Below, in pieces: positions 30,590-56,605 of a DNA stretch of 64,000 bases (positions are counted from its first letter, which is position 1; each line of letters opens with the position of its first letter). This DNA comes from Amphiscolops sp. MND2022. Lineage: Eukaryota. The position numbers and the translations under genes were made by a program. The stretch spans positions 89,342,001 through 89,406,000 of the forward strand of contig OZ076410.1 of the NCBI GenBank assembly GCA_964187785.1, in the 5' to 3' direction. The notes beneath the pieces are model-generated. The model did not search any database. It had not been told where the DNA came from and saw only the letters and a list, made by a program, of their open reading frames with translations.

Positions 30590-30646
30590 GAAAAATAACT
30601 TAGTTTCTTTTTGTGGAGATTTCTGATTCTCCCTTTTCTAACTAAG

Positions 30647-34401: not shown

Positions 34402-37400
34402 TCACAAAAAGATAGTGGCTTGGAAATTGAATTTCTACTGGACACTGGGGCAACATCTTCAATCATCAACTATAGAACATTTAGAGAACTTTGTCAATTT
34501 CAACAAGATCTTGAACTCAGTAGGAGCAACAACACAACACGGAACTACTCTGGTCAAATCATCCCTATGATGGGATACATTTCGCTAAGACTCTACTATG
34601 ACTCCGACGGCCAACATAACTTCCCTCTGACAATCTGGATCACCGAAATGAAGACACAGAACCTTCTTGGAATGAATTTTTGCCAAGAACAAGTCAACAA
34701 AATACACTTCGATCTTCCCGGCATAGAACTCAAGAAACCGACTAATACCTTCTGTTACGGCAGTCTTCAACTCAACAAAAGTTACCCTTATGTATCGCAA
34801 ATCTTCTCTGTCCGGATTCCTTACTCAATGTATATCGAGCCAAAAACGACAAGGTGTTACAAATTTGCACCGGAGAACACTAAGAACTCTTTTCCTCCTG
34901 GATCTACGTTCCTACCCAACAGAAAGGCAGTCTCTACAGGACTCAACTTCATAAATGTCCTTTGTACACGGTTTGAGAAGACTTTGCCAATCGTTATGGA
35001 AAACAACAAGAACCATACAATCACGCTAGTAAAAGGAACAATAGGATACTCCATGCTAGACGTCATAGACAAAGAAATCCCAAAATATCAGATTAGAAAT
35101 CCTACCGAACCCGCTTACACCATTTTAAGCGAAAACGAAGAATACAATGATTGCTTCTTACTACACTCTACTATCCCTTCACAAGATATGAACGATTGCC
35201 TCAGAATAGAAGGAGGAAATTCCACAACAATACTCAGCAGACCAGATTCTGTCATCATCTTTGTCCCGGCTGATCTAAAGCCAGCCAAAGGCTTCTCTAA
35301 AGAAATTTTAACAAAAATACCTTCACTAAAAGACTCTTGCGCAAAACAGAAGCCACAAAAAGGCGACACAATACCATACTGGGATACAACTCTAAAGCGA
35401 TTTATATACGTCCTAATAACTAAAGCTAAATCGAAAGACAAAATCGACCCACAAATCTTAGCCCAATCGCTGGAAACACTAAAAGCCCACGCTAAAATGA
35501 ATAATATCAAAACTGTTTCTATGTTACGAGAAGCATCAGAACTAGAGCACTTCCAATGGCAAGACGTTACACAAATTATTCAAGACATTTTTGCCTACTC
35601 AGAAATACAACTCCGAATTTATACAAGAAACGAGCTAGATGTCTACGCCATGACTACCAGAGGAGACCCCGAATATGCACTAGAAGATGAAATACAACAC
35701 TTTTCAGAAGAATTCCACTTGAAGCACAGAGAACTGGAAACTGACTTTACTAGAGACGCAAAGTCCTGTCAACCACCTTGTGAAGAACAATTCAAGATAT
35801 TTAGGCCCAAAGAAGACAACGAACGTCTCATTGAATACTACCTACAATATCAGAACAAGGAAGCAGTTCAATACATCAAGGAATTTGACTTTCGCTACTC
35901 AGACCTCACAGACGAAGAACTTGTTCTTCTAATAGACCTACTAATGGATGCTAGAGATGTATACTCACAACACAAGTTCGACGTTGGAAAGACTAGACAG
36001 AAATTTAACATTAAGCTGGAACAGGGAGCAATTCTGAAGAGACAGAGACCTAGCAAAGTACCACTACACCTACGTGAGAAGTTAGAAAAACTACTAACAC
36101 AGCTCAAAGAGGCTGACATAATAAGAGAAATGGGAGATGACGACGAAATGGGATCCCTATTCGTAAACCCCATCATCCTACAACCAAAACACGATTATGT
36201 TAAGCTGATGATAGACGCAAGATACCTGAATTCAGTAACTGATCTAACAAACTACTCCTGGCCCTTGGAACCAATCCAAACCATAATGACGCTCATCAAC
36301 GGGAAGATATTCTCAGTAGGCGATCTCTCTTGCGCTTTTCACCAAATCCCACTAGATGAGCCCACACAGAAGCTAACTAGCTTTATAATTGGCGGTAAAC
36401 AATACACATTCACCAGAGGATTCTACGGACTTAAAGGATTACCCAGCTTCTTCAGCCGTATGATGACAATCCATTTTGAACCCCTCATCAAGAAGAAACA
36501 AGCAATAACCTACATAGACGACACGTTAATGCAGGCCAAAAACAAACAAGAGATGTTCACAGTTATCCAAGAATACCATGACCTACTACGGAAAGCAGGA
36601 CTCAAGGCAGCTCCCGACAAAACACTATTCTTCTTGCGAAAAGTTAAGTTCCTGGGACATGTGATTGCAGCAGACGGAATACAACCTGTAGCTAAGCGAG
36701 TCAGGGATCTTCACAATCTCAAATCGCCAAAAACAAAAACTGAGGTAAAAAGCTTCCTAGGGGCTCTGGGATTCTATAGCTGTTACATCAAGAATCTACA
36801 TGTCGATAGCCGGCCTTTCTACGAGCTGACCAAGAAAGATACAAACTTTTGTTGGAAACAAGAACATGAAGACCTCTTCCAAGAAATAAAGAAGAGAATC
36901 AGCGAAGACACAGTTCTTGCAGTACCTTCAACAAAACACCCATTTCATATACACGTAGACTCGTCCAATGTGGGGACAGGATGTATACTCATACAACAAT
37001 TTCCAGAGGGGAAACGGATCATCTCTTTCAATTCCAGAATTTTCGCAAAAGAAGAACAAAAGATGTCCGCACTACTTAGAGAACTATGTGGAATAGTCTC
37101 AGCACTACAAACATATGAGCACTATATCATTGGATCTCCCTTCCCGATCTATCTATATTGTGACCATAAACCAATTCTTTATCTCTGGGGACGAAAAGGA
37201 CAGGTTTCACCGCGATTCTTTAGGTACCAAGTGATTATTTTCAAGTTTCCCAATCTAAAGATAATATGGACGCCGGGAAGCAACCTAGCCTTCCCCGATA
37301 TACTCAGCCGAAATGTCTCAATCGAAGAACACAAGAAACACCAACTTAGCCACAAGATCCTACCCAACGACATACACTTCTTCGACGAGCACGGGACTCA

Positions 37401-39949
37401 AGTTCACTACAAAATCAAACACGAGGAAAACGACGAAACTTCAAAGAACGACTTCTACCCTATATTGTACGAAAAGGGGGATGAACGGAAAATCCTTCAC
37501 CTACAAAACGACGGTAATAACTTCACAGTTAACAATGTCTACGAGGAACCTAACCTGCCGAAGATTGAATCGGCACAAAGTTGTTTTGACGCCGGAAAAG
37601 AAATCAGAAATTACGAAGAGCTACGAATCAGATCTGGCACGCGAGAAAGCACTTCCGATATATCACAAAATACTTACAGCTCGGTTAACAGCGACGCCGA
37701 TGACGAAGCCCCTGCAGATGATGAACGTCAAGAAGTGAACGAAACAAATTATGAGCCTAATACGAGTTCCCCGACACTCCAAGAACGTACCCCTGAAAAT
37801 GATAAGGCAGCCGACAATTACGAGCTCCTTAAAACCACAATAGGAAAACAAAAGACATCAACACGAGAACTCATAGGCCAACTCGATAAGATTTCCAAAG
37901 AAGCGGAGCTAAACGTCACAACAATTTTACAAGAACAAATTAATGACCCAGTCCTCAGTGTGGTTCGACAATGGATGAAGACAGGAAACAAGCCTACGCC
38001 AAAGTCACCAGAACTACAACATTCGAAAGGCCTCATGCGCTACTTTCAGGAATTTGACCGACTAACTATAGAAGAACAGGGAAATCTCCTCTGCTACAAC
38101 GAGCCAACTGACGACCCGGCCGACGAAAACCTGAGAATCTGCCTACCTCTCTCTCTATTTCTAGCTTGCTTCCGTATGGGACATTACAACGACCTGGGCG
38201 GCCATATGGGGGCTGAGAAAACTTACCTAAATGCTAAAAGATTCTACTACTGGCCCGGAATGCACGACTGGATCTGTGCCCTCACACAAGACTGCGTTAG
38301 TTGCCAATCTAACAAATCCAAACAAAGAAGAAATAACGAAGTCCCACTGGAAGACTGTGAAACAGAGACCCAAGTATTCAGAACAGTTCATATCGATCAT
38401 AAAGGACCACTCAACCCTCCCAGTCGTGGAAATTCACACTGCCTTCTCATCATTGACGCATTCTCGCGCTATTTGATGGCATACCCGGTCCGAGACACAG
38501 GAGCGCACTCAACAATCAACGCTATGGAAAAATGGATAATGCACTACGGGATACCACAATCTATCATAGATTGTGGTATCCCGTAGTGCATTATCCATTT
38601 TTGTATTATGATGTATTATGATAATACATGATAGAGGAACAGCTTTTGTAAACACTGAGTTCGTCAACTGGACAAAAGAGTTTGGCATTACTCTTCGACC
38701 AAGAACTGCACACTCACCCTGGACAAATGGCAAAGTCGAGACGCAAAACCAACACATCGCAAGGTACTGGAGAAACTTCCTAAATGAATCAGGAAATAAC
38801 TGGGCCCAACTAGCCGCTAAACTTGCATTCGCCCACAACACAAGCGTCAACTACACAACAGGAAAGACACCCTACGAGATAGTGTTCTGCAACAAACCAC
38901 AAATACCTATGAGTCTGAAGCTGGGACTATATAGGAATAAAAACAAGAACTGTAAATCACAATTCTGTAACGGACTACCTCCACACCGCCATAGTGAAAA
39001 CCACGTAAAAAACGAACTATTAAATGGACTATTACGACCACAACTATCCCAAAACTTGCTGGAAAGAGAAACAGCCTTCAAAAAGATCTACTCATCCACA
39101 TACGAAAAGTGCAGACAACAAACAGCTCGATCACACGCCTACAGAAACAGATTTAAACTCGGAAACCACCTCAACATAGGACAAAAGGTCCTGCTAGAAA
39201 ACCATCGAAAAGATCTTTCTAAAAGCCAAAAACTTCAGCAACTACGATTAGGACCCTTTACAGTCACCAAGAGAATCACCTACACAACTTACCAAATAAC
39301 CGAAGATCGAAATCCAGAGAACCTCCGAACTGTACATAGAAATCACCTAATAGAATATTTTCCCAAAGAGGAAACACTCCCCCCTCTAATCGAAGAATAC
39401 ACAACTCCCCACCGTGGAGACACGGATTTTTATAACAATCTCGTCAAGGGAAGAATTGAACAACTTAATGTTTCAGAACCACAAACAATGGGAGATCTCT
39501 GCATATTGCCAGTTCGGACCCAACAAGATCAAATACTTGCCCGCAAAAGAGAACAAACCCCACAGAGCACATACTCTGGTATCATTTCTCCAGAAAACCA
39601 GTTGTTGGCAACCCCACAAACTCCCGATCAGCCTTCGACCTCACATCCTCGCGACACCGCAACCCCTATCCTAACGTTGACTCAACGTCAACTAACTCCA
39701 GCACGACCAACTAACAACCAGGCGTCTTCAAATAAATCACCGACCCCTTTGCAAGAATTACGAAGAGCTGTAGCCCGCCACATAGAAAGAAATCCACGAT
39801 ATCAACGAGCACAGCCCAATCAACCAGCACAACAGTCCGTCCTTCGTGAAAGGACTCGAATTGGTTACAAAGATAAAACCTTATCATGCCTTGCCATAAA
39901 GTATATCTACAATTGCCCTGGCAAGTTCCACGAGAACTTCAGTCCTTAG
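34312..39949 (+). CDS. pol: Family A Pol: protease, macrodomain, RT, RNase H, integrase; frameshifted by a 58-nt insertion at 38569-38626
   Basis: LLDTGATSS; GDLSCAFHQI..YIDD; HVDSSNVG..ELCGIV..CDHKP; H-H-CVSC zinc finger; IDHKGP..HDRG..GKVETQN. Confidence 0.96.
35200..35625 (+). CDS. TARG1/OARD1 (Poa1p)-like macrodomain within Pol
   Basis: RFIYVLITKAK..QSLETLKAHAKMNNIKTVSM..LEHFQWQDVTQIIQDIF parallels TARG1 [48 protein letters not shown]. Confidence 0.8.
38528..38602. repeat. Perfect 37-bp inverted repeat with a 1-nt loop (foldback insertion in integrase)
   Basis: 38528-38564 is the exact reverse complement of 38566-38602. Confidence 0.97.
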
Positions 39950-40272
39950 GTGTTCTCAACGTAACAATTACAAAAATCTACTGGACCTACACCAACAAGC
40001 TAGTTAGAATCTGCTTCTACTCCAAAGACCCAGACCCGAGCCATAATAAACAAACAACGCCCCGAAAATCAAACATACCTATACGCCCAGAATCTAAGAC
40101 CTTTGCTCTTCTATATCAACACCTCGCATACTATGCAGTCACACACCACGACCCTATCCTAGAAGAACTCCTATCCTACATGCCTACCCTAATACCTGAC
40201 CTACAACCTTCCCTACCTAATACTAAAATGGACCTATTCTGCTGCTCTACTATCTCCTCACCTAGCTCCTAG
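39886..40272 (+). CDS. Accessory ORF a (128 aa), small paralogous family
   Basis: ATG-started ORF overlapping the pol end; shares VYLQLPWQVP and ITKIYW..LVRICF with ORFs b-d. Confidence 0.6.
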   Translation: MPCHKVYLQLPWQVPRELQSLGVLNVTITKIYWTYTNKLVRICFYSKDPDPSHNKQTTPRKSNIPIRPESKTFALLYQHLAYYAVTHHDPILEELLSYMPTLIPDLQPSLPNTKMDLFCCSTISSPSS

Positions 40273-40442
40273 CCTGCCACGAATAGTAAAAAGGTTTTCT
40301 TATCATTTTTTATTATTGTTTGCTTTGGTTTACCGATACTGTTATATTATTTGTGCAATCCCGAAAGAGCCATACAAAAGGCCACAAAAGACTGAAGCAT
40401 ATAGAAAAATAGGGAAGTTTAAGAGTGGAGAGACTTCAGAGC

Positions 40443-41033
40443 CTACTCCAGCTCTAAATAGCCCCCCATCTCCGCCAGTTTCTTCAATTGCTGGACCCGC
40501 TCAGAATTTGTCCATGCGGGCCATAACCGACGAAACTGACCCCGCTGAAACGAGGTTAATCGGGAATTGCCCAAGATATGACTCCTGTGCTGGAACAGGA
40601 GCACTTCCCCCTGCCCGGCCAGGAGTCTTGACTCCCAGGCCCTACCATACTGTTGTAGCAGGAACGAAGCAAAGGCATCCGAAAGGGGAGGTCTACCGAC
40701 CATGTACCCCCGTACACCCCTCGTCCCTCGGTTGTCCTCCACCCACCTCTCCAACCGCGTAACATCCCCCCAATCATAGAGATCCATGAACGTTTCTCTG
40801 TCCGGGTTACTAATGAGCCCTGGTATTAATCTAACCAGCGGACGAATAACACGGGGCGCGGGGGAAGAACCAACAGGAACCGAAGTGTCCGGGCGACTAG
40901 GCCCGGCCACAGACATTGCTGAGGAAGCAACAACAGCAGCAGACGAAGAAGAGACGACGACAGTAGACGTAGTCGGGGCCGTAACGCCCGACGACCCACT
41001 AGGGGCAAGATTATTGGTATTATTGCTGCTCAT
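40443..41033 (-). CDS. Antisense accessory ORF (about 196 aa from ATG 41033), unknown function
   Basis: Uninterrupted ORF with a Ser/Thr/Val-rich N-terminus and a globular C-half; bounded by AT-rich gaps, with a minus-strand AATAAA near 40310. Confidence 0.6.
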   Translation of the reverse strand: MSSNNTNNLAPSGSSGVTAPTTSTVVVSSSSAAVVASSAMSVAGPSRPDTSVPVGSSPAPRVIRPLVRLIPGLISNPDRETFMDLYDWGDVTRLERWVEDNRGTRGVRGYMVGRPPLSDAFASFLLQQYGRAWESRLLAGQGEVLLFQHRSHILGNSRLTSFQRGQFRRLWPAWTNSERVQQLKKLAEMGGYLELE

Positions 41034-41232
41034 TACTAAATGCAAAGTAGCTATTGATAGTCATGTAAACCTAAATAAAAAATATATTGATTTAATACTT
41101 TTACGTCTTTATTTGTTTACCCTAGTATTCATAAATTCAATATATTATCTGCCCTTTATTCCTCGGTAATTAAACACGAAATCATCTGAAGTCGTGTTAA
41201 TAATTTTTACTGTAAGACTGTTTTCAAACGCA

Positions 41233-41531
41233 ATGAAAATAACTGATGATTACATTCTCAGATTTGCTCTGTTTGATGAACACAAACCACGAGGCAAAAC
41301 ACCCCACAGATGATCATAATATTCAAAATCGACAATAGACATTCACAGATCACGGACATTCAGAAGGAGCCCTCAACACAGAACATCATCATACAAGCCT
41401 ACGCAATAGCAGAGGAAGAAAGTGAAACCTACACTTGTGTGCCAGCATCACCCATCTACCCACTACTGGAGAGCTTGCTATATAACAACACCCCTACTGA
41501 AGTCTTCACCAGAGCCAAATCAGTCATTTAA
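41233..41531 (+). CDS. Accessory ORF b (26-aa piece plus 73-aa piece joined by an ATGA overlap or a frameshift)
   Basis: MKITDDYILRF...R* overlaps ATG 41310; paralog pattern ITDIQ..NIIIQAY. Confidence 0.5.
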
Positions 41532-41926
41532 TGTCCTCTCCCGCAGTAGCTGTCTTCCGCGGAAATAATTACTACTTCCACACCCAATTTCAACCTTCTG
41601 TTCCTTGGACGCCCATACAACTCAAGGGCCAATACGAAATACAGTCAATTTTCTACGAGATCACTACTTCTGCGATTCAAGTTCGTATCCTCACGCCAGA
41701 GGACAAAGAAGCTCTAGTCCTCTTCCCTATTCACTTCGGGTCCAAGGAATACGCCTACTTATTTCTTTCGTTCAAGCAATACATACTCCAACACCCCACC
41801 GTCCTCAAAGACAAGGCCTTCGACGACTTGGTTTATTTCATGGACATCACTCTCACCTCCAACCCCTTTGAAGAAGAAGTCCGAATCAAATACCTTCATA
41901 GCCTAGTCGACACCTACGATGTTTAA
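41531..41926 (+). CDS. Accessory ORF c (131 aa)
   Basis: Starts in a TAATG overlap with ORF b; pattern IQSIFY..AIQVRI..SKEYAYL. Confidence 0.65.
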   Translation: MSSPAVAVFRGNNYYFHTQFQPSVPWTPIQLKGQYEIQSIFYEITTSAIQVRILTPEDKEALVLFPIHFGSKEYAYLFLSFKQYILQHPTVLKDKAFDDLVYFMDITLTSNPFEEEVRIKYLHSLVDTYDV

Positions 41927-42260
41927 GATTCAACTCAAATTTCTCTGGCGGCATCCAGAAACAAACACCCTCCTAGAAATCCTCTCTATCGCTTGGAAAG
42001 ACAGCGCTCCAGTGATCCAAATAGAAATCCATAGTCTTCGACCGCACCAGCCAGGCCACTGGCTCATCCCGGTAGAAACCGACTCACAAGAAGCTGCCGC
42101 TCTCGCACAATCCCTCAAGGAATACAGACAGATAGCATACTTAAATCACATTCACCCTCTTACACTCTTCCTCCTCAACAAACTCATCGACTTCATCGAC
42201 TCGAGAAGAAAAAACAAACCCTCTCCCAGTCTGCAATTCATCAGTGACAATTACAGCTAA
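41919..42260 (+). CDS. Accessory ORF d (113 aa)
   Basis: ATG overlaps the end of ORF c by 8 nt (ATGTTTAA); pattern IQLKFLWRHP, ILSIAW..VIQIEI..SQEAAAL. Confidence 0.65.
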   Translation: MFKIQLKFLWRHPETNTLLEILSIAWKDSAPVIQIEIHSLRPHQPGHWLIPVETDSQEAAALAQSLKEYRQIAYLNHIHPLTLFLLNKLIDFIDSRRKNKPSPSLQFISDNYS

Positions 42261-42320
42261 ATCTTCACAAATGGTTGAAGTTAGTCTCTTTCAAATACTC
42301 TTCATAGGCACTCTTTTTCT

Positions 42321-42588
42321 AACAGTAGTGAGGTTACTACTATAAAATTTTAGCCTCCGCTTAGCGCAGTGCCCGCTAAGCTGCCGGTTTGATATTACGG
42401 CTTGCCTTTTTACGGTCTTACTCCTGGATCCATTACCTTAACTACAACTAAAAGAATAACAGACTTCTCTTTTTCTTAGGTACGTGTGAACAGTAGTGAG
42501 GTTACTACTATAAAATTTTAACCTCCGCTTAGTGTTGTACCAGCTAAGCTGCCGGTTTGATATTACGGCTTGCCTTTTTACGGCCTTA
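42321..42588 (+). repeat. Two 100-bp direct repeats (42321-42420 and 42489-42588) with pseudoknot/hairpin potential, flanking a splice acceptor at ~42479
   Basis: Near-identical copies; TTCTCTTTTTCTTAG|G lies between them; env ATG is 70 nt downstream of copy 2. Confidence 0.9.
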
Positions 42589-42657
42589 CAACGGATCCAC
42601 ATCTTCGAATAAAAGATTTCACATGATTGATTTTGCGAAGATTGCAAAATTTCAAAA

Positions 42658-44802
42658 ATGAAACTATTTTTCCTACTCTTTTTATGCGCCTATTACGCGC
42701 CCGTTGTGATCTCACAACGCCCTACGCCAAACCTCGCTAGCGTTGCTAAAAAATTGCGAGTTACTCATTTCGACTGCGGCGAAATGACCCAAAACAAGCT
42801 CTACGCATTGAATCAAGTAGAGCAATGCAATGTGGCCCCAGAAAACTTAGAAGTAAGTCGTGCTAGCGTAACGTTATACACTAAACACTTTCGCCGCACT
42901 ATCAACGCCACTATGTGCCGTGTGAAACATCAGAGTGAAGAATGGCATTGTGGTCATCACGACCACTCCAGTATGTCAATTCTACACAACGGAATCACTA
43001 GCGATCTTTCCTTGTCCCCCGAAACCTGTAAGGCAATGGGTGAAGGAAAAGAAGTCATAATCCATGGACAACTCCTTAGATTTAAAAAAGGAGTGAAACA
43101 AGTACAGACGAGAAACGCCAAATACGGAAAAAGTTGGGACGGGGTACGCGACCCTGATACCCGCAATGAGTGCAAAACAGGAGGATGGATCAAACGCGAA
43201 ACTTTCGAATCTCACATCCAAGACGCTGAGTTATCAGTCAAAACCCGAGATGGAAAGGTCCTCACACCGTTTCAGATGGTCCTTCCCTGTCCTTTGGAGC
43301 AACTTGGTTGTGAAACGACGTCACTGGACCCCTACGCATACACATGGGCAGAACCCGATAATTGCGTGCTTGCAGTACACAGAAAGGAAATGGTGAACAT
43401 GATAAAACACGGATCTAACTACTATTTTGTCAGCGGCAACGATTCCACTACCAAATTTTTATTCGAGGTCTACAACAGACCACAAAAGTACTGCAACAAA
43501 CCCGACGATGTATACCCGACCAACTACGAATCCCTGTACGTTTCAATCCAACTTGGTGGCTTCGACATGACCTCCGGCAGAAGACTCGGCATCTCCATGG
43601 GCGAGACATCTAAACTTCAATATTACTCACCTGACGATGGTTCTGGTAATGGCCGACTCCACCTCTTCAGAGGACCCAGCGACTCTAACCCCAATACACC
43701 ACATTATCTCAACATGGATTACGAGCTCCACCAAGGAACAAAGTTAGATTATCTCTTTTTTGAGAGCACCCGCTTACTTGAAGCTTCAGAAATCCAGCTT
43801 TTGAAAGCTCAATGTGAACAAGAAAGAACACAAATCCTCACCATCTTGATGCTCTCCATGGAAAACCCACGACTTGCCGGATACATGCTCACGGGAAATC
43901 GCTCAATGTTCCTGAACACAGATGGTAGCCTAGCATGGCTCTACCACTGCCCAGAATCCCACTCACCTCTTCACACGATGAACCAATGCTACGACCGCAT
44001 ACCCATCTTCTACAAAGGAGTGGTCGCCTTCGTGGACCCCATCACCCGACAGACTTATCCTAATGCGAACGTGCACAATTGCAGCGATCGCATTAAGAAC
44101 CTCTTCCAACTGGACATGGAAGACAAAGATTCCTGGTTTACCCTCACTCCTTCACCCGAACACCGTGACCGACCTGCTATCTTCGGACCCAAGGACATCC
44201 AACCACTGATTACCAGATCCTTTCCTGGATCACAAGACGCAGGAATGTACACGCCAAAACAACTCTCGGAATTTTGGGATAACATCCTCATCAGCGCAGC
44301 TTCACGAAATGCCCTCCAGAAGTTTTCACGAGAACTCATCATCCCTTCAATGGCCCATAGCGGACCCGAATCATTTGCGTATTATGCACCCCGTACCGAT
44401 TTTTACGTTGACGGTATGATATCACCCGACTACTTCAAAAATCAATTCCTCGAAACCTTCGGAAGTATATCGTACGTCCTCGAACTCTGCGGCGCGTATT
44501 TTGGCGCCTTTCTTTTTATTAAATTCGTTATAGATATCACGGTCCTAGTCTTCCGCTATTTCGAACTTCGTCACCTTACTGGTAATACCCTGAGCTTCAC
44601 TAAAACCTTGCTCAGTGCTTCGTACAATCTTTTCTTTACCTCCGTTTTAACTTCCGTATTCACCCCGCGGGCCCCTCTCGAGGATAGCATTGAAGAAAGA
44701 ACAAAAACGGAAGACGAAATAAAAGCGGTAGAACTTCAAAATCTGAAACAAAAAGAGGAACCACTATACCCCTCAATACAGAGCTTCGTAGCTCCAATTT
44801 AA
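42658..44802 (+). CDS. env: Intact envelope glycoprotein, 714 aa, class III fusion-protein-like (chuvirus G / herpesvirus gB type)
   Basis: Signal peptide MKLFFLLFLCAYY; Cys-rich ectodomain; QCEQE..NPRLAG..G..C..CYDRIP resembles gB WCELQ..NPNAIAS..G..C..CYSRP; C-terminal hydrophobic anchor. Confidence 0.88.
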   Translation: MKLFFLLFLCAYYAPVVISQRPTPNLASVAKKLRVTHFDCGEMTQNKLYALNQVEQCNVAPENLEVSRASVTLYTKHFRRTINATMCRVKHQSEEWHCGHHDHSSMSILHNGITSDLSLSPETCKAMGEGKEVIIHGQLLRFKKGVKQVQTRNAKYGKSWDGVRDPDTRNECKTGGWIKRETFESHIQDAELSVKTRDGKVLTPFQMVLPCPLEQLGCETTSLDPYAYTWAEPDNCVLAVHRKEMVNMIKHGSNYYFVSGNDSTTKFLFEVYNRPQKYCNKPDDVYPTNYESLYVSIQLGGFDMTSGRRLGISMGETSKLQYYSPDDGSGNGRLHLFRGPSDSNPNTPHYLNMDYELHQGTKLDYLFFESTRLLEASEIQLLKAQCEQERTQILTILMLSMENPRLAGYMLTGNRSMFLNTDGSLAWLYHCPESHSPLHTMNQCYDRIPIFYKGVVAFVDPITRQTYPNANVHNCSDRIKNLFQLDMEDKDSWFTLTPSPEHRDRPAIFGPKDIQPLITRSFPGSQDAGMYTPKQLSEFWDNILISAASRNALQKFSRELIIPSMAHSGPESFAYYAPRTDFYVDGMISPDYFKNQFLETFGSISYVLELCGAYFGAFLFIKFVIDITVLVFRYFELRHLTGNTLSFTKTLLSASYNLFFTSVLTSVFTPRAPLEDSIEERTKTEDEIKAVELQNLKQKEEPLYPSIQSFVAPI

Positions 44803-44838
44803 AAGATAAACCTTTCTCATCAAATGTATTACTTTTAG

Positions 44839-45327
44839 CAACTAGACTCAATTTTCGACCTACCAAACCTGGACGAAGACAACCCTAACCCTAACCTCGA
44901 GGATGACTTAGAAATCGAGCCCCTATCACCATCGGACCTGCTATCCCCAATATCACCCACAACAATCAACTTCCTCCTAGACCCACCAGACTCAACAGTT
45001 TCCTCTCCCCCAAGGGTGCCTACAACAACAACCTCATCAACAACATCAGAGCGACCCCCCTTTCCGCTGTCGTTCACAGAAGAGGTAGCACCTATCCCAT
45101 CAACTCAACATCCACCCCGATTCGGCGGAAAAGATATAAGAAGAATCTTCCCCAGAAAACACCACCACCAATGGAACAACGAGATAGCGGACCAGGCACC
45201 ACTAAATAAACAACACAAAAGGGAATACTATACAAAAAGGGCCCGATATGTTAAAAGGCCTAGATTCAATGCAGACTTAAAGTATACCCTACTTCCCCAA
45301 TTCTCATCATGGAACATCGTTTTCTAG
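44839..45327 (+). CDS. ATG-less open frame after a TTTTAG acceptor: acidic, Pro/Ser/Thr-rich, with a basic C-terminal cluster
   Basis: The frame is open from 44839 (QLDSIFDLPNLDED...) to the TAG at 45327 and contains KRARYVKRPRF. Confidence 0.45.
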   Translation, partial: QLDSIFDLPNLDEDNPNPNLEDDLEIEPLSPSDLLSPISPTTINFLLDPPDSTVSSPPRVPTTTTSSTTSERPPFPLSFTEEVAPIPSTQHPPRFGGKDIRRIFPRKHHHQWNNEIADQAPLNKQHKREYYTKRARYVKRPRFNADLKYTLLPQFSSWNIVF

Positions 45328-46430
45328 GACAACAAGAGACAAGAATACACTATAGAGAACCCTGCACTCAAAGGACAAAGACTAACTGTCCCCTTAAGAT
45401 CAATATCCGCACAATGAATCACAGGCTAAATCCTAATGCTGCCCCCTTCATCCCAAAAAATAATCCTTCCTCCCATACTACTACACCCGATTGGCCACCC
45501 ATATCAAAACCAGATGATCCAGAAGAACAAGAGACTCTCGAGGGAATAGAAAGATTGAGCAAATGGATATCAGAATTAAAAACCTCAACCAAATCACGTT
45601 GCCAAAACGAAAAACTACTAGAAACCCCGGTTCTTCGGAAATCATTTCCCTTAACAGAAACCTTACAGTCTAAAACGAAACTTGATGGCAAAGTGAAACA
45701 ACTCTACAATTCGGCAGAAGAAGCAAGGACTAGATGTCTACAATTAGAGACCACAATATCCAACTTACAAGCAACTATAAAATACCAATGCTCCCTCCTC
45801 AGAAAAACTAATATCATCGATGGGAGAAACAATGAACCCTTCCTGTGGCAGATTCCCGCATTTTCTACACTATACCGGAAAGCAAAAACCTTCCCGAATG
45901 AACCACTAAGCAACTTCAAATGTAGCTTCACCAGCCCCATCTATACCACTCACCTAGCAGGCTGCAAAATATCCCTTAGACTATTTCCATATGGGATAAA
46001 CCTCTTTCGTGGAACCCACTCCTCCATTTGCTGTGAGCTCCATTTTAGCGACTTCACCCTCCCTCGAACATGGCCCTTCGAACGACAATTAGAAATCTCC
46101 ATCATAGATCAAAAAGACAAAAACAACAAGTGGTCTACCTACTTCCCAAACAACTCTGACAAGAACAACCAAGACGACACCCACGCCGGCACCTACACCC
46201 TTCCTGAACTCATGCGAGAAGATTTCATCCCTCACACAAAACTATTGGTCAACTTCAGGGAAGCCTTTTTAAACAACGACTCTGTAATCCTCCAAATTAA
46301 ATTTAAAAATCCTCCCCCTTTAAAATCCCAAGTGCTAAAGAATCCCCCCTTCATTTCTGACCTACCCCAGATACCTCATTCTTTTCTCCCTGCCAGGGGG
46401 GTGAGCTGTCGCGTTATGACTAACGCTTAA
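45309..46430 (+). CDS. PAM2 motif + coiled coil + TRAF-C/MATH domain protein (373 aa; probable start ATG 45414)
   Basis: LNPNAAPFIP at 45426-45455; helical heptad-rich region; MATH 45840-46304: FLWQIP..FTSPIYT..GCKISLRLFPYG..RGTHSSI..WPFERQLEISIIDQ..FLNNDSVILQIK. Confidence 0.88.
   Translation: MEHRFLGQQETRIHYREPCTQRTKTNCPLKINIRTMNHRLNPNAAPFIPKNNPSSHTTTPDWPPISKPDDPEEQETLEGIERLSKWISELKTSTKSRCQNEKLLETPVLRKSFPLTETLQSKTKLDGKVKQLYNSAEEARTRCLQLETTISNLQATIKYQCSLLRKTNIIDGRNNEPFLWQIPAFSTLYRKAKTFPNEPLSNFKCSFTSPIYTTHLAGCKISLRLFPYGINLFRGTHSSICCELHFSDFTLPRTWPFERQLEISIIDQKDKNNKWSTYFPNNSDKNNQDDTHAGTYTLPELMREDFIPHTKLLVNFREAFLNNDSVILQIKFKNPPPLKSQVLKNPPFISDLPQIPHSFLPARGVSCRVMTNA
46395..46406 (+). promoter_or_regulatory. 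Polypurine tract of family A (AGGGGGGTGAGC)
   Basis: G-run immediately 5' of the 3' LTR. Confidence 0.8.
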
Positions 46431-48455
46431 TCAATAATACAAATGCAACTACAACAATAAAGTGCTCAACAAAAAACACCTGATTTAATAAAAAGCTCTA
46501 CAAACATCCCAGGGATACTCTCCCGTTTCTAATCAAAAATTCCCCTGCAAAAATACAAAGCTAATCAATTCCCTTTGTGCTACCGCGCAGTTTATGATTA
46601 AAAACACCTGATTTAATAAAAGGCTCAACTATCATCCCAGGGCTTCGGAGCCGTTTCTAATCAAAAATTCCCTTGCAAAAATACAAAGCTAATCAATTCC
46701 CTTTGAGCTACAGAGCAGTTTATGATTAAAAACACCTGCATAAACAAAGCACAAAATTGAACTAACCTGGAGACGGAGGGAGATGAAGATAAAAAATTAA
46801 TAAAGTAGGGCGGCTGGCAAAAGAAAGGGAGGCAGCAGAATAAAAAAGTAAATTCTCGGGGGACGCAAATACCGCGGGATTGCACAAATGAAAAAATTCT
46901 ATTATTCACCGCGGAGATCCGAAATCTAAAGCTAAGCTCTGATTGGCTGAACGAAAACCAGACCAATCAGGCACTTCGGCAGAAGTGCTGAGCTGTTCTT
47001 ATACGGCGCGCGCAGGCTGGAGCCTCATTCTTCCCTCTAACCGGCAGAGCTTCAACACCTAAAAAGCTTTTCTCCCACTTTCTCTTCTCCTCAGCTTCTC
47101 TCCACTTTACTCAAAAACTCATTTCCCACTTTTCTTTTCCCTCGGTCTTATTTCTTCAAGACCAAAAAATTTCTATCTTTCATTCTCCTCTTCTTCCTTT
47201 GGTCTTAAAATATTTCAATCTTGTGCTAAGTCCCACAGCACCAGCAGAATTTTCTATCTTAGAAAATTCTCCTCAACTCAATTTGGACTCCGGTTTGGTG
47301 AGTGAAAAATAACTTAGTTTCTTTTTGTGGAGATTTCTGATTCTCCCTTTTCTAACTAAATTTTATCTTAGTGAAATTCCGCTGATTTCATTCAGCGGTT
47401 GTTTAAATTTTTTCTTAGTAAAATTCCACTGATTCTACTCAGTGGTTATCTGAATTTTATCTTAGTAAAATTCCGCTGATTTCATTCAGCGGTTGTTTAA
47501 ATTTTATCTTAGTAAAATTCCGCTGATTCTACTCAGTGGTTATTTGAATTTTATCCTAATAAAATTCCGCTGATTTCATTCAGCGATTGTTTAAATTTTA
47601 TCTTAGCAAAATTTCACTGATTCTACTCAGTGGTTATTTGAATTTTATCTTAGTAAAATTCCGCTGATTTCATTCTGCGGTTATCTCATTTCTAATTACA
47701 AAAATATTAAATAAATGGTTGGCGTTACACTAGTATTTACAAAATCATTTCACCGTGTTTACCTAGTTAGTTTGTTCCTTATAAAAAGTCCTAATACTGT
47801 CTCTCCACCCAACAGAGCAGTGACTTCAAAAAACTAAAAATTGCTGGTTTAAATTATCACCGGCTAAAATCATTTTTCATTTGCGGCAGATCTAAAGCAT
47901 TTCCAATATGAAAGTGTAAAAGCTTGCATTTTAGTCTGTAAATTTTAATACTAATTTTCTGATGTACATAAATGCTCTCCGATATATTTTGTGAAGCTAC
48001 TTTGCTCAAAATTGGAACAAATCTTTCAAATTAACTGAAGTGAAGTAAGTAGTTGTTTTGCTGCTGTATTTAACAAAAGATGGAATAGATACTGAGATGC
48101 CTAAAAAATTTTACTTAGTACTATTGTATGTTCACGTGATATAATTCAACATATTTCCTTTCAATACTTTTCCACTTTTCAGATGACTCATTTACATACA
48201 CTGCCTTGCACTACTCACGCAACTCCCTTTGTTCGCACGAACACGCAAGGCATTTCCTTTCTAGTATTACACGGAGTAAGCTTTGAGACTTTCTTACTCA
48301 TTTACAATCAATAATAGAACAGCACCTGAAAGTACTTTGCAAAATGCTACATAAGCTGAACTGACTAATACTGATAACAACTGAACAGTCACTTGAAAGG
48401 GAAAGTGATGCAAACAGGAAAAAGTAAATAGTAAAATTCATCCATGCGTGCGACA
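46407..48455 (+). repeat. Family A 3' LTR (2049 bp)
   Basis: TGTCGC...GCGACA followed by the TSD ATAG. Confidence 0.97.
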
Positions 48456-48459
48456 ATAG

Positions 48460-49237: not shown

Positions 49238-52200
49238 GTTCATCGTTGAAAAGAACCTATTTCACTAACAAAAGATCTCCAAAAATAGTGTATAATGCAC
49301 TGTAGTAAAAATGTGAAAAAACGACAAATCGCAATACATGTTTTTTTTGTATGATTGGTAGAAAAAAATTAGGCATCGCCAGTGTTTGCGGTTCGCTCTT
49401 TTTTTTTCCACTTCCCCATACTTTATAGTGACCTTCATGCTTTGAGAGGTTGATCCCTTCTTGAACAGTTGGTAAAAAGAATTAAATTGCGATAGAACGA
49501 ATTCCAATGTTGATCTTTCATTCAGAATCTATATAGATCTGTGAGCCTTTTTCCCTTGAGGATCTATGAAGATCGTTCCACTCCTTCGGTAGGACAGGTG
49601 CAGTTCTGCAAGGATCTTCACAAATATTCAAGTTTTCTGTACAACTTTTTGGAATTTTTCAACAAGCGTTTTTCGGAAACCATTTTTTCGCTTTAATGAG
49701 TATTTTGGCCAATGTTCAGTCTCTTGAAACTCTCCACCACTCACAAATCGCTAACAGGAAAGTTTTTTTTGGTTAAAAGAAAAAGTTCACACACAGTAAT
49801 TTATCCATTTCATTTGAACTTTCCAGAAGTAGTTGTTGAATTTTGAGAGGCTCGTCTGCCAAAGTGACTTCGTTTTGGCGGATGAAATTAGATGAGTGAC
49901 CACCGTCTGGGTTGACACAGGTGTTCATAAAATGCTGTTGTTGTAATACTCCGGTTTGTTCGAGTAGTTTTGCTAATTGGTGGTAACTCGGAATACGTTA
50001 TAGTAATTAATTGGTTTTAGTTAATTTTCGAAAAATCTTGGAATATCTGTCAGGATCAGTACAGATAAGAGCCGTCTTTATCTTATAGAGCAGTTTTTAA
50101 TCGTCTAGTTTCAATTTCAACTATTTTCGACTAGTTAATTGTTAACGAATCCGGATACAGATTCGCAGTGAGAGCGCACGTGGGCTTGGCTCCCAAATTG
50201 TTACGTACGCCGTGTGGCACGCATCTCATGGTTTCGAAATTGCTAGAATCAGTCAGCTGTCTTTCATTGCTTTATGTGACAAGCATTTTGTTTACTCCAG
50301 AACCATCGGGAAAATAGTCTTTTAAAACGTTGCCAAAAGAAAAGTCAGTCCACAGGCGACAAATTCATTTCTAAAAAACAATTAGTACCTTCCGAGCCAA
50401 AAACAATTTTACCTAATTAGGTCACAACGAAAACACGATGAATGGCGCCCCAACTGGCGAGCGATAATTTAGTCTAATTGCTTTTATCTACACATTCTAC
50501 TACGTGAAGAAATATAATCCTGAATGCTTTTCAGGAATGTTAATGCAACTTTCATTATTACTATAGTTTTCCAAGTTATTTGGTTCAGGATGATTGGTTT
50601 TCAAACTTTCAGATCTGGTTATTACCATAGACAAGATTGAATTGAGTAGTGAAAAGGTTTTAGATAGATATAGATTGGCTTTGGAACAGAAATCAGTTTT
50701 AGGTTATCAGGTGTAGTCAGTAACAGCGTGTTATAGAGCACCAAAATTTAACGCATGAGATTTCGATCGTCAGAAAATGGTGATAGTTTGTTGCAGTGAT
50801 CAGAAGCTGCCATAGGTTTACCAGCAACCAATGCTTGATAAGTTGGACCAAAACTATCCATCTTGTTTTTCCGCAGTAGCATTCGGATCACTTGCTTCAA
50901 TTCTTCTGTCGTTACTTTTTTCTTTTGATTTTCGGTTGCAAAGGTCCGCGTCTTTCTCTGATGGAACCGAACTTCTCGAAATCTATATCCTTTTCTTGTG
51001 ACATGACTTCAATGACTTGTTCAATGGCTTCTGTTTTCTGTTGAAACAACAGCTCTGAGGTTTGTGGCCAAGCATCTTTTTCTCTGGGAGCCATGCCGGC
51101 CCTGTGAACCATGTGCAAGTCCACAACTCCGGCATTTTGTGATAAATATTCAATTTGATAGTCATCTCAATCATATGACTCAACTACAATGCCAAATTCT
51201 TGAAATTTATCTCATCTTCTGGAGATAACTGTTCGTCCCACGTTTGTCCATGCTTCTTTTAAATTCTTGTGAGCAACAACTTCATCCTCACTGTGAAAGG
51301 GGAAAACAATACCAACGGAAAAAACACAGAGGATATTTGAGGTAGGACAATTCTTTGAGTTACCTTGACAGGTATTTCTTTTCCCATACCGCGGCAGATT
51401 TAAATCTTGTGTGACTTCAAAATCCATTGGCGTCCCAAAATAGACGGTGCCAAGAGTTCTGCTTCGAATGTCTTGCTTGGCGCGACTGATCTATCTTCAG
51501 GAGGTATTTGTTCCGTTTTTCGGAGATGCAAATCCATCTCGTTAGTTGAAATCCACGATCCGCTAAGGCTTTTTGCATGCTTGTGTACACTTCAACTGCT
51601 TCTTCCTCTGAAGCTACTGACTTCACAAAGAGAAACTTCTGTTGATCAACTTTGATGTCATCACATTGTCATCTCTACAGTCTCTTCCATATTTATACAC
51701 AGAGACATGTTAAGTGTTGTTTTCTCTCCACAAAAATCTGAGTACATTGCAGTCTGCAGGGGGTCCTTTCGCTTGGAGAAACATCGCTTCAACGTCTGCT
51801 GTCAAGGCAATCTGTTTCTACCTGAATCTGAAAATTACTCCTTTGAGCGATTGTAGAAAGAAGACACCGGACATCATATTATTATTGAGTAAGACTCCAC
51901 CGAGCTTTGAAGCTGCGTTGCCGACCCATCTCACTTTGTCTGGCTTGCTCGGGTTCAGCACAAGAAGATGTGGAACGTACCACTGAGGGTCTGTTTCAAT
52001 GTTTTCGAGCTCAATTCCATGCAAAATTCTCACAACTCCCTTTTTTACGTCCATATCAATATTCTACTAGTAGCGTTGTCTCAAGTTCTCATCCTTTTCC
52101 GTTCAGCACTCGAGAGGCTTCAATTGACTCACTGCTGAACTGTAATTGTTTGGCAAATGCAGTATTGCATTTTTCCAAAATAGTCCGACCTCATACTTCT

Positions 52201-53198
52201 CTCCGTCAATTTTTGTGAGTGCCTTTAGCAATTTGAGAGCACGGTCATCTTCCTTGGACCTACCGGAAACGCTGCAAATGGAAGCATACGATTCCATACT
52301 CCACCAAGACTTCACTTAATTTGCCAATGGGTCCACTTCTGCAGCAACTAGGCTTTAAGTTGCGAACTTCGCACTCTCTTGTTGAGGCAAGGGTCCACTG
52401 AGCGTCCATCCCAACATCGTTCGCTCTACCCAAGGTTTGGCGTTTCGACCTTTTCTCTTTTCCGTTGCTCTACAAAAGTGATAACAAATTTTGCCTTTGA
52501 CATCTTTAAAATTGACGGTAGAGTTTTAAAAACTGACAGGTGAAGATATGCTTCCTTCAATTTCTTGAAGTTGTACGTTCGATTTCCGACTTTACGTTGG
52601 GATGACCATAAGCAATGATATCTTCATTGACTTCTCCGTCTTGATCACCAATCTTGACACGAAGTCGTTTACTACTGATATCTGACGTTCCATGAACCCC
52701 TTCAACATTCAAATCAAATGGCGGTCCCGTCAGATTTAGCGCTTTTATTAGACTCTCATCAATTTACAACAGACTCGCTCCAGATTTGCTCCAAGCGAAC
52801 GTTTTTAACGTTTTGCTCCCTCTCCCTATCGTTACTGGAGTGACTGGTAGGACACCACTGCTTCTCATTCAGGAAGTTACGAACCTCCTCGACTTTTTCT
52901 TTCACGTTCTTGTATGGTCGATGAAGCAATCTGTGATGAGATTTTCCGAAACCAATGACATTGGAGAGACTGCCAGAGCAAATTCGCATCTGATGTGCGT
53001 CTGACAAACATTTGAAGCACAGTCTCACTTCTTTCGCTTTTTGTCCTCTTTCTTCGACATTCATCATTTCGAAATTCTCACCTTTCCCTCTCAGCACCCA
53101 CTCTTGCTGGGTTTTCGAGTTATCCTTCGATGTGCTTGATGCTGATGTTGCAAACGTGGAGCCTTTTCGCCTTTTCTTTACTGCTCGACTTCGCGCGA

Positions 53199-53759
53199 TT
53201 AGCATTCGGGTTTGAAGACAGAAGCAATCAATTCATGTTGCACATCTGCTGTGTCAGGGAGCCATTCACTGAACTCAGCTAGTCCAGGTTGATACAGGTT
53301 CATTTGGTCGGCATAAGTGAGCAACTTTGAACTCATGTCCAGTGTTACCTTCCTTGGGGCGCTGCCCAGAACTCCTTTTGAGTTTACGTCTCCCACGTAG
53401 TTGAATTGTGACAAAACAATCACGCAACTCGACACTATTCTCGCAAGCTTGAATGATGTAGCTTCATCATAAAGTTTCATCGGTAGAAAGGAGTAATTTC
53501 GCTTCAGCTGAGCTTTCACAACCTTTTGAGGTTTCCCAAAATTACAAACTCGCACCTTCCACCTCACATTATACATCTCTGCAGTGTGTCCCAGGCCACC
53601 AATCTCCTCTTTGGCTTTACCCGTCACCATCGTTCTCAAGTGATTCGACTTTACACTGTCGTCCATGTTCGCTGCGTGGACGGTTGCTTGGAATAGTTGC
53701 GACCACTCTGGCCACCCCAATGGATCTTCGGAAAACTCTGGTAGCTTTAACTTTGGCAA
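53199..53759 (-). pseudogene. gag: BEL/Pao gag fragment, copy 1
   Basis: DUF1759-type motif, 186 aa. Confidence 0.8.
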
Positions 53760-56605
53760 GCTACATCTGATGGAACAGCCATCTTTCTTTGCATTTGGAG
53801 CAAAAAATTTGGCCTGTGACTTGTGAATACTGCTTCTACATCAAATGCCAACTCGGATTGCTTCCAGTGGATGTAGTAACCACTTCTGGCCTGCACCTAT
53901 GGCCCTTGACGGTATCGATGTGGCGAAGTTCACTTCTGGTTGTACTGTTCCTTTTTGACTGTCAGCACCGTGTCAGTTTTTGTTCTGTCCCTTCCATTTT
54001 CTCGCACATCAGCTTCGGAGGATATGGTTGGTTTCACTAAGGTTTTAAAGACCCTTGCTTGTGCGGTCCGCTGTCATCCGTGCGTTGATTCCACTGTACT
54101 CACTGGTTTTGATACCGGCGTTTGCGGGTATACTATTGGCACGGTAAAAGGCTGAGCCGCATTTTCGGTTGCAACGTCCATCGATCCTGAGAAGTTCGTC
54201 AAACAGTCGTCTGCTGAACCGACCGATGAGATATATTGCAAGCTAGGCCCGCAACTACTCGAAAAGTTTTATTTCCTTTTCGGGTGTTCTGCTTCTGTCG
54301 TTACTTTTTTCTTTTGATTTTCGATTGCAAAGGTCCGCGTCTTTCTCTGATGGAACCGAACTTCTCGAAATCTATGTCCTTTTCTTGTGACATGACTTCA
54401 ATGACTTGTTCAATGTCTTCTGTTTTCTGTTGAAACAACAGCGCTGAGGTTTGTGGCCAAGCATCTTTTTCTCTGGGAGCCATGCCGGCCCTGTGAACCA
54501 TGTGCAAGTCCACAACTCCGGCATTTTTTGATAAATTTTCAATTTGATAGTCATCTCAATCATTTGACTCAACTACAATGCCAAATTCTGGAAAATTTTC
54601 TCATCTTCTGGAGATAACTCTTCGTCTCACGTTTGTCCATGCTTCTTTTAAATTGTTGTGAACAACAACCTCATCCTCACTGTGAAAGGGGAAAACAATA
54701 CCAACGAGTCAAACACAGAGGATACTTGAGGTAGGACAATTCTTTGAGTTACCTTGACAGGTATTTCTTTTCCCATACCGCCGCAGATTTAAATCTTGTC
54801 TGACTTCAAAATCCATTGGCGTCCCAAAATAGACGGTGCCAAGAGTTCTGCTTCGAATGTCTTGCTTGGCGCGACTGATCTATCTTCAGGAGGTATTTGT
54901 TCCGTTTTTCGGAGATGCAAATCCATCTCGTTAGTTGAAATCCACGATCCGCTAAGGTGTTTTGCATGCTTGTGTACACTTCAACTGCACTGCTTCTTCC
55001 TCTGAAGCTACTGACTTCACAAAGAGAAACTTCTGTTGATCAACTTTGATGTCATCACATTGTCATCTCTGCAGTCTCTTCCATATTCATACACAGAGAC
55101 ATGTTAAGTGTTGTTTTCTCTCCACAAAAATCTGAGTACATTGCAGTCTGCAGGGGGTCCTTTCGCTTGGAGAAACATCGCTTCAACGTCTGCTGTCAAG
55201 GCAATCTGTTTCTACCTGAATCTGAAAATAACTCCTTTGAGCGATTGTAGAAAGAAGACACCGGACATCATATTATTATTGAGTAAGACTCCACCGAGCT
55301 TTGAAGCTGCGTTGCCGACCCATCTCACTTTGTCTGGCTTGCTCGGGTTCAGCACAAGAAGATGTGGAACGTACCACTGAAGGTCTGTTTCAATGTTTTC
55401 GAGCTCGGTTCGATGCAAAATTCTCACAACTCCCTTTTTTACGTCCATATCAATATTCTTTTAGTAGCGTTGTCTCAAGTTCTCATCCTTTTCTTTTCCA
55501 GTCAGCACTCGAGAGGCTTCAATTGACTCACTGCTGAACTGTAATTGTTTGGCAAATGCGGTATTGCATTTTTCCAAAATAGTCCGACCTCATACTTCTC
55601 TCCGTCAATTTTTGTGGTTGCCTTTAGCATTTTGAGAGCACGGTCATCTTCCTTGGACCTACCTGAAACGCTGCAAATGGAAGCATACGATTCCATACTC
55701 CACAAAGACTTCACTTGATTTGCCAATGGGTCCACTTTTGCAGCAACTAGGCTTCAAGTTGCGAACTTCGCACTCTCTTGTTAAGGCAAGGGTCCACTGA
55801 GCGTCCATCCCAACATCGTTCGCTCTACCCAAGGTTTGGCGTTTCGACAATTTCTCTTTTCCGTTGCTCTACACAAGTGATAACAAATTTTGCCCAAGAA
55901 GACTTTGACATCTCTAAAATTGACGGTAGAGTTTTAAAAACTGACAGGTGAGGATATGCTTCCTTCAATTTTTTGAAGTTGTACGTTCGATTTCCGACTT
56001 TACGTTGGGATGACCATGAGCAATGATATCTTCATTGACTTCTCCGTCTTGATCACCAATCTTGACACGAAGTCGTTTACTACTGATATCTGACGTTCCA
56101 TGAACCCCTTCAACAATCAAATCAACTGGCGGTCCCGTCAGATTTAGCGCTTTTATTACACTCTCATCAATTTACAACAGACTCGCACCAGATTTGCTCC
56201 AAGCGAACGTTTTTAACGCTTCGCTCCCTCTCCCTATCGTTACTGGAGTGACTGGTAGGACACCACTGCTTCTCATTGAGGAAGTTACGAACCTCCTCGA
56301 CTTTTTCTTTCACGTTCTTGTATGGTCGATGTAGCAATCTGTGAGGAGATTTTACGAAACCAAAGACATTGGAGAGTCTGCCAGAGCAAATTCGCATCTG
56401 ATGTGCGTCTGACAAACATTTGAAGCACAGTCTCAGTTCTATCGCTTTTGTCCTCTTTCTTCGACATGCATCGTTTCAAAATTCTCACCTTTCCCTCTCA
56501 GTTCCCACTCTTGCTGGGTTTTCGAGTTATCCTTCGATGTGCTTGATGCTGATGTTGCAAACGTGGAGCCTTTTGGCCTTTTCTTTACTGCTCGACTTCG
56601 CGCGA

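Follow-up and report, generated by a model that had tools for sequence, protein, structure and literature searches.

The 64,000-nucleotide (nt) stretch of Amphiscolops sp. MND2022 DNA analysed here (the window) contains an 18.8-kb Ty3/gypsy long terminal repeat (LTR) retrotransposon (29691-48455, + strand) with a gB-type env. Behind env, the element carries an open reading frame (ORF) for a TRAF-domain protein with a PAM2-like motif, the type of motif that binds MLLE domains of poly(A)-binding protein (PABP). By sequence criteria, this is a real and functional accessory gene of a retroelement, with an unusual expression layout, and we consider it very likely that the ORF was captured and serves the element.

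The frame 45309-46430 is open and intronless over 373 amino acids (aa) and lies behind env and ahead of the polypurine tract (PPT), as a preliminary description of the sequence had reported. The same description took the frame to be intact and to run into the 3' LTR. The window copy does enter the LTR, but it diverges from the frame of its relatives near 46305 by a frameshift and is thus not intact; read-through as a family trait was rejected because the relatives end before the PPT, at 300 to 334 aa. The start at 45309 was also abandoned, since stops separate this Met from the ORF in other subfamilies and the Met at 45414 is conserved across them. The first 35 residues read from 45309 are an off-frame reading of a conserved upstream ORF (ORF-X), which had been overlooked when the TRAF ORF was placed between env and the PPT, although that position itself holds. 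With the start at 45414, the PAM2-like motif is N-terminal.

Pfam searches identified a TRAF-C domain in the ORF (MATH_2, E = 6.5e-12; TRAF-mep_MATH, E = 1e-7) and gave no match to RING or zf-TRAF; the N-terminal region shows no Cys/His pattern. The top matches of the ORF among PDB sequences were TRAF5, TRAF4, and TRAF1. AlphaFold modelled a close natural relative (P0198, 314 aa; mean pLDDT, 79) as a long helix at residues 84 to 136 and a beta-sandwich, and Foldseek matched this model to TRAF4, TRAF5, TRAF1, TRAF3, and TRAF2 with E values from 5e-12 (TRAF4) to 1e-8. Pfam, AlphaFold, and Foldseek thus agree with the coiled coil and TRAF-C/MATH domain without RING or zinc fingers that had been proposed, and the MATH fold is predicted. 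By fold, this is a TRAF-domain protein that lacks the RING and the groove motifs of signalling TRAFs; it would operate in the manner of a RING-less TRAF scaffold bearing a PAM2. The region of the PAM2-like motif has a pLDDT of about 50 in the P0198 model, and the N terminus carrying it is probably disordered. A pattern for this motif, chosen after the motif had been noticed, matched once among 127,996 residues from six-frame translation of the window and in 25 of 100,000 shuffles. The peptide had no match among PDB sequences, with chains shorter than 20 residues excluded.

A three-copy model of residues 84 to 302 scored 0.39, compared with 0.02 for the best control, and showed contacts along the coiled coil; as TRAF trimers have been solved, this result speaks for likeness and not for binding. 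The runs agreed in at least 70% of contacts, with a pLDDT of at least 66. Of the microbial calibration cases, 21 of 30 solved pairs but 0 of 23 single chains attained the mark applied to such scores; for eukaryotes, the numbers were 17 of 29 and 0 of 30, respectively. In our judgment, the protein quite probably forms a trimer through its coiled coil.

The ORF is not confined to one copy. The 1.07-Gb genome of this animal-type eukaryote yielded at least 113 matches (579 candidates, 110 scored), and 34 loci were examined, of which 14 are near-identical (L017-L030). The env gene lies directly upstream in 33 of the 34 loci, the exception (L013) being truncated, and the frame is open for at least 295 aa in 23. 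A Met followed by the PAM2-like motif is kept in 31 of the 34 loci, so the motif is conserved among copies. Among six subfamily representatives, the dN/dS of TRAF-C was 0.10 to 0.28 (13 of 15 pairs with estimable dS), and synonymous sites were near saturation between subfamilies. The pN of the PAM2 codons was below that of the next 21 linker codons in 15/15 pairs, which are non-independent. Across lineages that share about one-quarter of TRAF-domain residues, L, N, A, F, and P of the motif are kept in the PAM2 spacing and the residues in between vary. As an additional observation, L002 differs from L017 and L033 by a dS of about 1.5 in TRAF-C, 2 to 3 times that of the C-terminal half of env (0.56 to 0.75), which suggests that subfamilies exchange 3' modules by recombination.

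ORF-X, between env and the TRAF ORF, has no ATG at its head and starts directly after a T-rich AG. Its database relative P0206 begins with three extra residues, which correspond to an ATG and two codons at 42271-42279 of the window. In a natural copy, L037, the alignment with the window stops at 42279 and resumes at 44839, so that exactly 2,559 nt, including env, are missing; this loss is best explained by reverse transcription of a spliced RNA. An exact match to the 42279/44839 join was found at one genomic place, with 121 other matches containing mismatches and 88 in the reversed control. The start exon and its donor are kept in 4/4 subfamilies, the T-rich AG acceptor is also kept across subfamilies, and a host TRAF gene (L044) uses the identical GTTAGT donor hexamer. 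No truncation point shared among 40 scored copies indicated a further splice upstream of the small ORF W (Table 1).

At its other end, ORF-X meets the TRAF start in an ATGA overlap, which is present in 31/31 loci with a located Met before PAM2; the ORF-X frame ends there in the 30 loci with a marker peptide. The most distant subfamily keeps the overlap although its ORF-X is two codons longer. The C-terminal 71 codons of ORF-X are the most constrained stretch measured, with a dN/dS of 0.02 to 0.03 (2 of 15 pairs estimable, the others being saturated); the window copy carries an in-frame stop at 45325-45327. Upstream of env, W, Y, Z, and the start exon abut through TAATG, ATGnnTAA, and a gap of 5 to 10 nt in 4/4 subfamilies, in all of which the length and junction of W are identical. 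All 13 tabulated stop-start spacings fall between -7 and +11 nt. W, Y, and Z have no Pfam match, and Y also gave no significant or usable Atlas match. Because ORF-X contains several ATGs, leaky scanning to the TRAF start is unlikely. Stop/start overlaps of the AUGA and UAAUG types, with the codons within 20 nt, are a hallmark of termination-reinitiation in caliciviruses and influenza B, and reinitiation is also used by SART1 (PMC10275272). From this layout, a spliced chain of five ORFs coupled by stop-start junctions probably ends with PAM2-TRAF as its last cistron, and we think PAM2-TRAF likely to be expressed from the env-spliced RNA by reinitiation.

The conserved domain of ORF-X gave no significant structural match (best Foldseek E value, 0.099; best Z score, 3.3, with an rmsd of 2.5 over 44 aligned residues). 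Many of the top structures were Tudor, KOW, chromo-barrel, or SH3 folds, a weak SH3-like-barrel resemblance that serves as a lead only, and none of the 73 relatives of ORF-X is named. ORF-X may be regarded as a candidate Tat-, Rev-, or CERV-like regulator. Two minor features lie near the chain: a two-copy repeat of about 110 nt at 42321-42599, in the env intron before the env ATG, and an additional ORF of 176 aa (L041, 529-1059), which precedes W in the most distant subfamily and for which no family was found. A second MATH domain suspected by eye in this extra ORF was unsupported (probability 0.2%).

Table 1. Features of the element in the window
Feature	Position	Strand	Remarks
Target-site duplication	29687-29690 and 48456-48459		ATAG, 4 bp
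5' LTR	29691-31836	+	TG...CA ends; 47-bp tandem array inside
Primer-binding-site-like TGG	31840
gag	32867-34324	+	Retrotrans_gag, E = 9e-5
pol	34279-39949	+	Protease, weak Macro-like segment, reverse transcriptase (RT), RNase H, integrase
ORF W	41310-41531	+	73 aa; stop overlaps next start as TAATG
ORF Y	41531-41926	+	131 aa; Z start 7 nt before end of Y stop
ORF Z	41919-42260	+	113 aa
Putative start exon of ORF-X	42271-42279	+	Three codons, 10 nt past stop of Z; GTTAGT donor next
Putative GT-AG intron holding env	42280-44838	+	2,559 nt
env	42658-44802	+	714 aa; Pfam PF24664 Monjiviricetes_fusion, E = 2.5e-32
ORF-X body	44839-45417	+	Acidic Pro/Ser-rich N-terminal part, basic stretch, conserved C-terminal domain of ~65 aa
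ATGA overlap, ORF-X stop/TRAF start	45414-45417	+
PAM2-like motif LNPNAAPFIP	45426-45455	+	Residues 5-14 from conserved Met
Coiled coil	45663-45821	+	Residues 84-136; predicted trimer interface
TRAF-C/MATH domain	45840-46301	+	Remodelled peptide groove
Out-of-frame tail peculiar to window copy	46305-46430	+	Spans PPT, enters LTR
PPT	46395-46405		Ahead of 3' LTR
3' LTR	46407-48455	+	16 mismatches to 5' LTR

Searches with a distant TRAF and with Pfam PF21355 revealed two more multi-copy intronless sets in the genome (98 of 958 and 150 of 440 candidates scored). One locus was read for each set, and both are elements of the order env, ORF-X, TRAF, and LTR without PAM2; their ORF-X has its own ATG, and gaps of 7 and 36 nt precede the TRAF ORF. 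Chains of small ORFs lie between pol and env in all three families (window, 41310-42260; L035, 1529-2964; L036, 1816-3552). The small ORFs of L035 and L036 are tandem paralogues (lowest E value, 8e-39); BLAST did not link them to W, Y, or Z, and they have no Pfam family.

A second PAM2-TRAF family, which this genome lacks (at most 34% identity to anything in it), comprises 351 clusters in the protein collection. The strict motif occurs in 66 of the 120 clusters listed, at residue 3 in 59 of these; most of the other listed proteins begin at an internal Met, and the off-frame N-terminal extensions in this family fit an upstream ORF-X. A decayed copy at a metagenome locus (L045) shows env, a T-rich AG, an ATG-less ORF-X, a stop in the same register, and PAM2-TRAF. 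Because this order is that of the window, the arrangement of env, ORF-X, and PAM2-TRAF exists in another genome. No relative of the second-family protein was found among 19 candidate stretches of viral contigs. Altogether, at least three families in this genome and one elsewhere retain TRAF at the same position in the element, and the ATG-less ORF-X with an in-register stop/start overlap is present in both PAM2 lineages and absent from both PAM2-less families.

Host TRAF genes with introns (L042 to L044) share with the element TRAFs an FP[LI] motif ahead of the coiled coil and the MATH subtype, and L042 has an upstream exon with Cys and His residues that by eye resembles a TRAF zinc finger. 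In a quick tree of 28 chosen rows, the element TRAFs and these host genes split from conventional-looking TRAFs (our own label for unnamed proteins) with an SH-aLRT value of 100, and the two PAM2-bearing lineages grouped at 87. An earlier, larger tree lost 17 of its 78 rows, in which the domain start was unmatched. Capture from a host TRAF subtype of the L042-L044 kind is supported by these comparisons, in line with the captured host TRAF that had been suggested; the search for the donor led to this subtype, but quick trees did not pinpoint the exact gene. None of the host loci or host-type proteins checked carries the PAM2-like motif, so that it was gained within the elements. As a separate observation, dispersed sets without introns and of equal frame length make up most of the top TRAF-domain matches genome-wide, and the two sets sampled are element cargo.

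We then compared the receptor-binding groove. The FxRP and GxxxF motifs are both absent in 8/8 proteins of this lineage and both present in 8/9 host-type proteins, and decay appears stepwise, with FxRP alone kept in the sister elements (2/2) and the second family (33/38). In 5/6 lineage proteins, the Arg with which strand beta3 begins has been retained. The corresponding TRAF2 segment contains the hot-spot residues S453-S455, F456, C469, and G468 (PMC7215387), as mapped through TRAF1 and TRAF5 alignments with a TRAF2 register that we partly presume. The loss of the groove motifs weakens a plain receptor-decoy function. TRAF-binding motifs seen by eye in the env tail of this lineage were dropped as candidates because they are not kept in the sister families. 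Potential partners in the host include MLLE domains with the ITGML core, 29 matches to TIR domains, and one match to zf-TRAF beside many TRAF-like genes; a search of the host genome found no Rel-homology (NF-kB) domain, although introns could hide one.

In the mechanism that we propose, a host TRAF would have been captured through its mRNA, leaving the introns and zinc-finger region behind. Removal of the env intron would give an element RNA with W, Y, Z, X, and PAM2-TRAF in a row, in which the TRAF start is reached by termination-reinitiation at ATGA and small, fixed amounts of protein are made. The coiled-coil homotrimer would display three flexible N-terminal PAM2 motifs, bind MLLE domains of PABP on poly(A) tails by avidity, and compete there with host PAM2 proteins, e.g., eRF3 and deadenylase adaptors. 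The TRAF cap, with its classical receptor groove lost, would act as a scaffold for other partners, and the net effect would favor translation or stability of the element RNA. A preprint (bioRxiv 10.64898/2026.01.10.698208) describes competition among PAM2 proteins for MLLE, a benefit from avidity, and affinities of human PAM2 peptides that differ over a 1000-fold range. Real PABP binding by the motif is the likely outcome in our judgment, and PABP-linked RNA control as the main job of the protein in this lineage is a tentative proposal held at slightly less than even confidence. Of the two roles suggested in the preliminary description, the adaptor tied to poly(A)-bound mRNA would agree best with these findings, and a dominant-negative immune antagonist is a further possibility. 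The fullest version, in which one env-skipping RNA yields five accessory proteins by serial reinitiation and a three-armed PAM2-TRAF clamp removes eRF3 from PABP, thereby adjusting how ribosomes terminate and restart on the polycistronic RNA of the element, is quite unlikely as a whole; if true, a transposon would have converted an immune adaptor into a regulator of translation, in a programme like that of complex retroviruses.

Several findings weigh against a PABP-centred role and the expression route proposed for it. The PAM2 motif named in the preliminary description is present, conserved, and beyond chance by a simple test, but its score against Pfam PF07145 is 16.6 bits, and 12.5 to 14 bits in relatives, below the cut-off of 20; with the 1000-fold affinity range, this means that the motif may bind weakly. 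Several pairs show a lowered pS in the PAM2 codons as well, and a value of 1.03 was obtained for one pair; constraint on the RNA at the restart site could thus add to the conservation of these codons. The two sister families number hundreds of candidate copies and have retained TRAF but have no PAM2; the older selected function thus cannot depend on PABP, and an older TRAF-linked role probably came first. The co-occurrence of PAM2 with the ATG-less ORF-X provides no independent support for the clamp programme, the two lineages being kin. The trimer score of 0.39 may reflect likeness to solved TRAF trimers, and the three-copy model differs from the calibration set. The splice join was recovered from the single copy L037, and AG dinucleotides shortly before the TRAF ATG make a separate splice acceptor there possible. 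UGGGA, which we take to be the 18S-complementary motif of TURBS type, is found upstream of 0/12 of the W-Y, Y-Z, and Z-X junctions; it occurs 89 to 95 nt before the TRAF ATG in 9/10 loci, but there it is forced by Trp-Asp codons.

Among other explanations, the protein could be a poison subunit that joins host TRAF trimers through its coiled coil and, having neither a zinc region nor a working groove, dampens TRAF signalling in defence, stress, or death, with PAM2 only localising it. All families examined, whether or not they have PAM2, share the TRAF part, the FP[LI] motif before the coiled coil also occurs in host TRAFs, the host has TIR-domain and many TRAF-like genes, and TRAF1, which is RING-less, forms heterotrimers with TRAF2 (PMC4858697). 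However, the lineage sits on a long branch, and its identity of about 28 to 29% to host TRAF exons disfavors heterotrimers; the failure of the host search to find a Rel-homology domain, subject to the same reservation about introns, also counts against dampened signalling. We regard this explanation as doubtful, and it is not mutually exclusive with a PABP adaptor. Alternatively, the decapeptide may not be a PABP ligand, reflecting instead RNA-level constraint at the restart site or another target, in a protein that serves as a TRAF scaffold for a new partner. At a position where LNPNAAPFIP has Pro, many PAM2 motifs carry Glu, which agrees with this idea, as do the subthreshold Pfam scores, the lowered pS, and the sister families without the motif. 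It is rather unlikely given that the five key residues keep their PAM2 spacing across distant lineages while those between them vary and that the low-confidence, probably disordered N terminus suits a linear motif.

A classical decoy, whose TRAF-C cap would take Px(Q/E)E-type receptor tails from host TRAFs, would account for the retained TRAF fold and the beta3 Arg. The FxRP segment and the beta7 Gly are nevertheless gone in 8/8 lineage proteins, and their TRAF2 counterpart holds the binding hot spots (PMC7215387), which renders this explanation very unlikely. That the ORF is a passenger, a host fragment transduced and copied without function, might be suggested by the 11 of 34 loci without a full-length frame and by the frameshifted end of the window copy; with the low dN/dS, the near-saturated synonymous sites, and the slot kept across families, it is scarcely credible.

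We next compared the element with known systems. It has the LTRs, target-site duplication, primer-binding-site-like sequence, PPT, gag, and env of errantivirus-like elements, and its pol order of protease, RT, RNase H, and integrase is that of Ty3/gypsy. Like the HSV/gB-type errantiviruses of Chary and Hayashi (PMC13524379), it is multi-copy, with the order LTR, gag, pol, and env and a gB-class fusion protein. It differs in that env lies in a putative intron and is itself flanked by five accessory ORFs; the likeness is one of gene content and order. A term search for "TRAF" in the text and seven supplements of that survey of env-bearing Ty3/gypsy elements returned nothing. The iridovirus TRAF homologue ISKNV ORF111L (PMC3352826) is likewise a captured TRAF in a mobile genome; it belongs to a large DNA virus, binds TRADD, and promotes apoptosis, and PAM2 does not appear in the abstract, whereas the present protein belongs to a retroelement and has a remodelled groove. 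Human TRAF1 (PMC4858697, PMC7215387) is also RING-less, with a coiled coil, a TRAF-C domain, and a trimer held by the coiled coil. However, TRAF1 keeps the receptor hot spots, whereas the element protein lost two groove motifs and gained the N-terminal PAM2-like motif. The same LNxxAxxFxP spacing in a flexible region is found in eRF3a, PAIP1/2, and Ataxin-2 (bioRxiv 10.64898/2026.01.10.698208). In contrast to caliciviruses, influenza B, and SART1 (PMC10275272), four putative reinitiation junctions follow in a row here, without a demonstrable TURBS-type signal. Bdelloid ORF3 (PMC5408684) and CERV of Cer1 (PMC10309623) are also captured or novel 3' ORFs of LTR retrotransposons, and for CERV a spliced mRNA joins an upstream start to the 3' ORF, as appears to be the case for ORF-X; their cargos are esterases, exonucleases, and an RNA-export factor, none of them TRAF. 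No report of a retroelement-borne TRAF was found in the literature searched, at the level of titles and abstract beginnings and with most subscription papers outside it, and the PAM2 literature searched contained no PAM2-TRAF fusion or retroelement PAM2 protein.

The usual description of env-bearing LTR retrotransposons gives them three genes. In the elements analysed here, an entire clade appears to keep hundreds of copies of a captured adaptor of immune signalling under purifying selection, and one of its branches, present in two or more genomes, has joined the adaptor to a PABP-type motif. This points to a means, so far undescribed, by which such elements could act on the host cell. If this is true, invertebrate retroelements would have an accessory-gene complexity known from lentiviruses and large DNA viruses, and the chain would be a candidate serially reinitiated polycistronic mRNA of an animal, encoding a natural multivalent PAM2 protein. 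The results also carry a warning for annotation, because most TRAF-domain matches in such a genome would be transposon cargo that inflates host TRAF counts, not an expanded host immune family.

The window copy of the element is damaged elsewhere as well, with an in-frame stop in gag at 33572-33574 and a break in pol at about 38530-38610, where a 75-nt near-perfect palindrome (an inverted duplication, 38528-38602) lies in the integrase region. Its LTRs differ by 16 mismatches over 2,049 aligned bases; their 47-bp tandem arrays are at 30580-31070 and 47295-47690, and a donor-like GTGAGT precedes the array near 30585. An insertion in pol between protease and RT (about 35150-35650) has a weak Macro-domain match (E = 0.16) and looks by eye like what we take to be TARG1-type macrodomains. 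Between pol and W, an antisense ORF (40443-41033, - strand; 196 aa) of no family matches L037 with 57% identity and L036 weakly. The window contains other elements at 1-6000, 12342-29280, and 50903-57698, among them a second Monjiviricetes-type env fragment (2814-4058) and fragments of RT, RNase H, and integrase (16851-18971) flanked by long direct repeats. A 3.4-kb tandem duplication is also present in the window.

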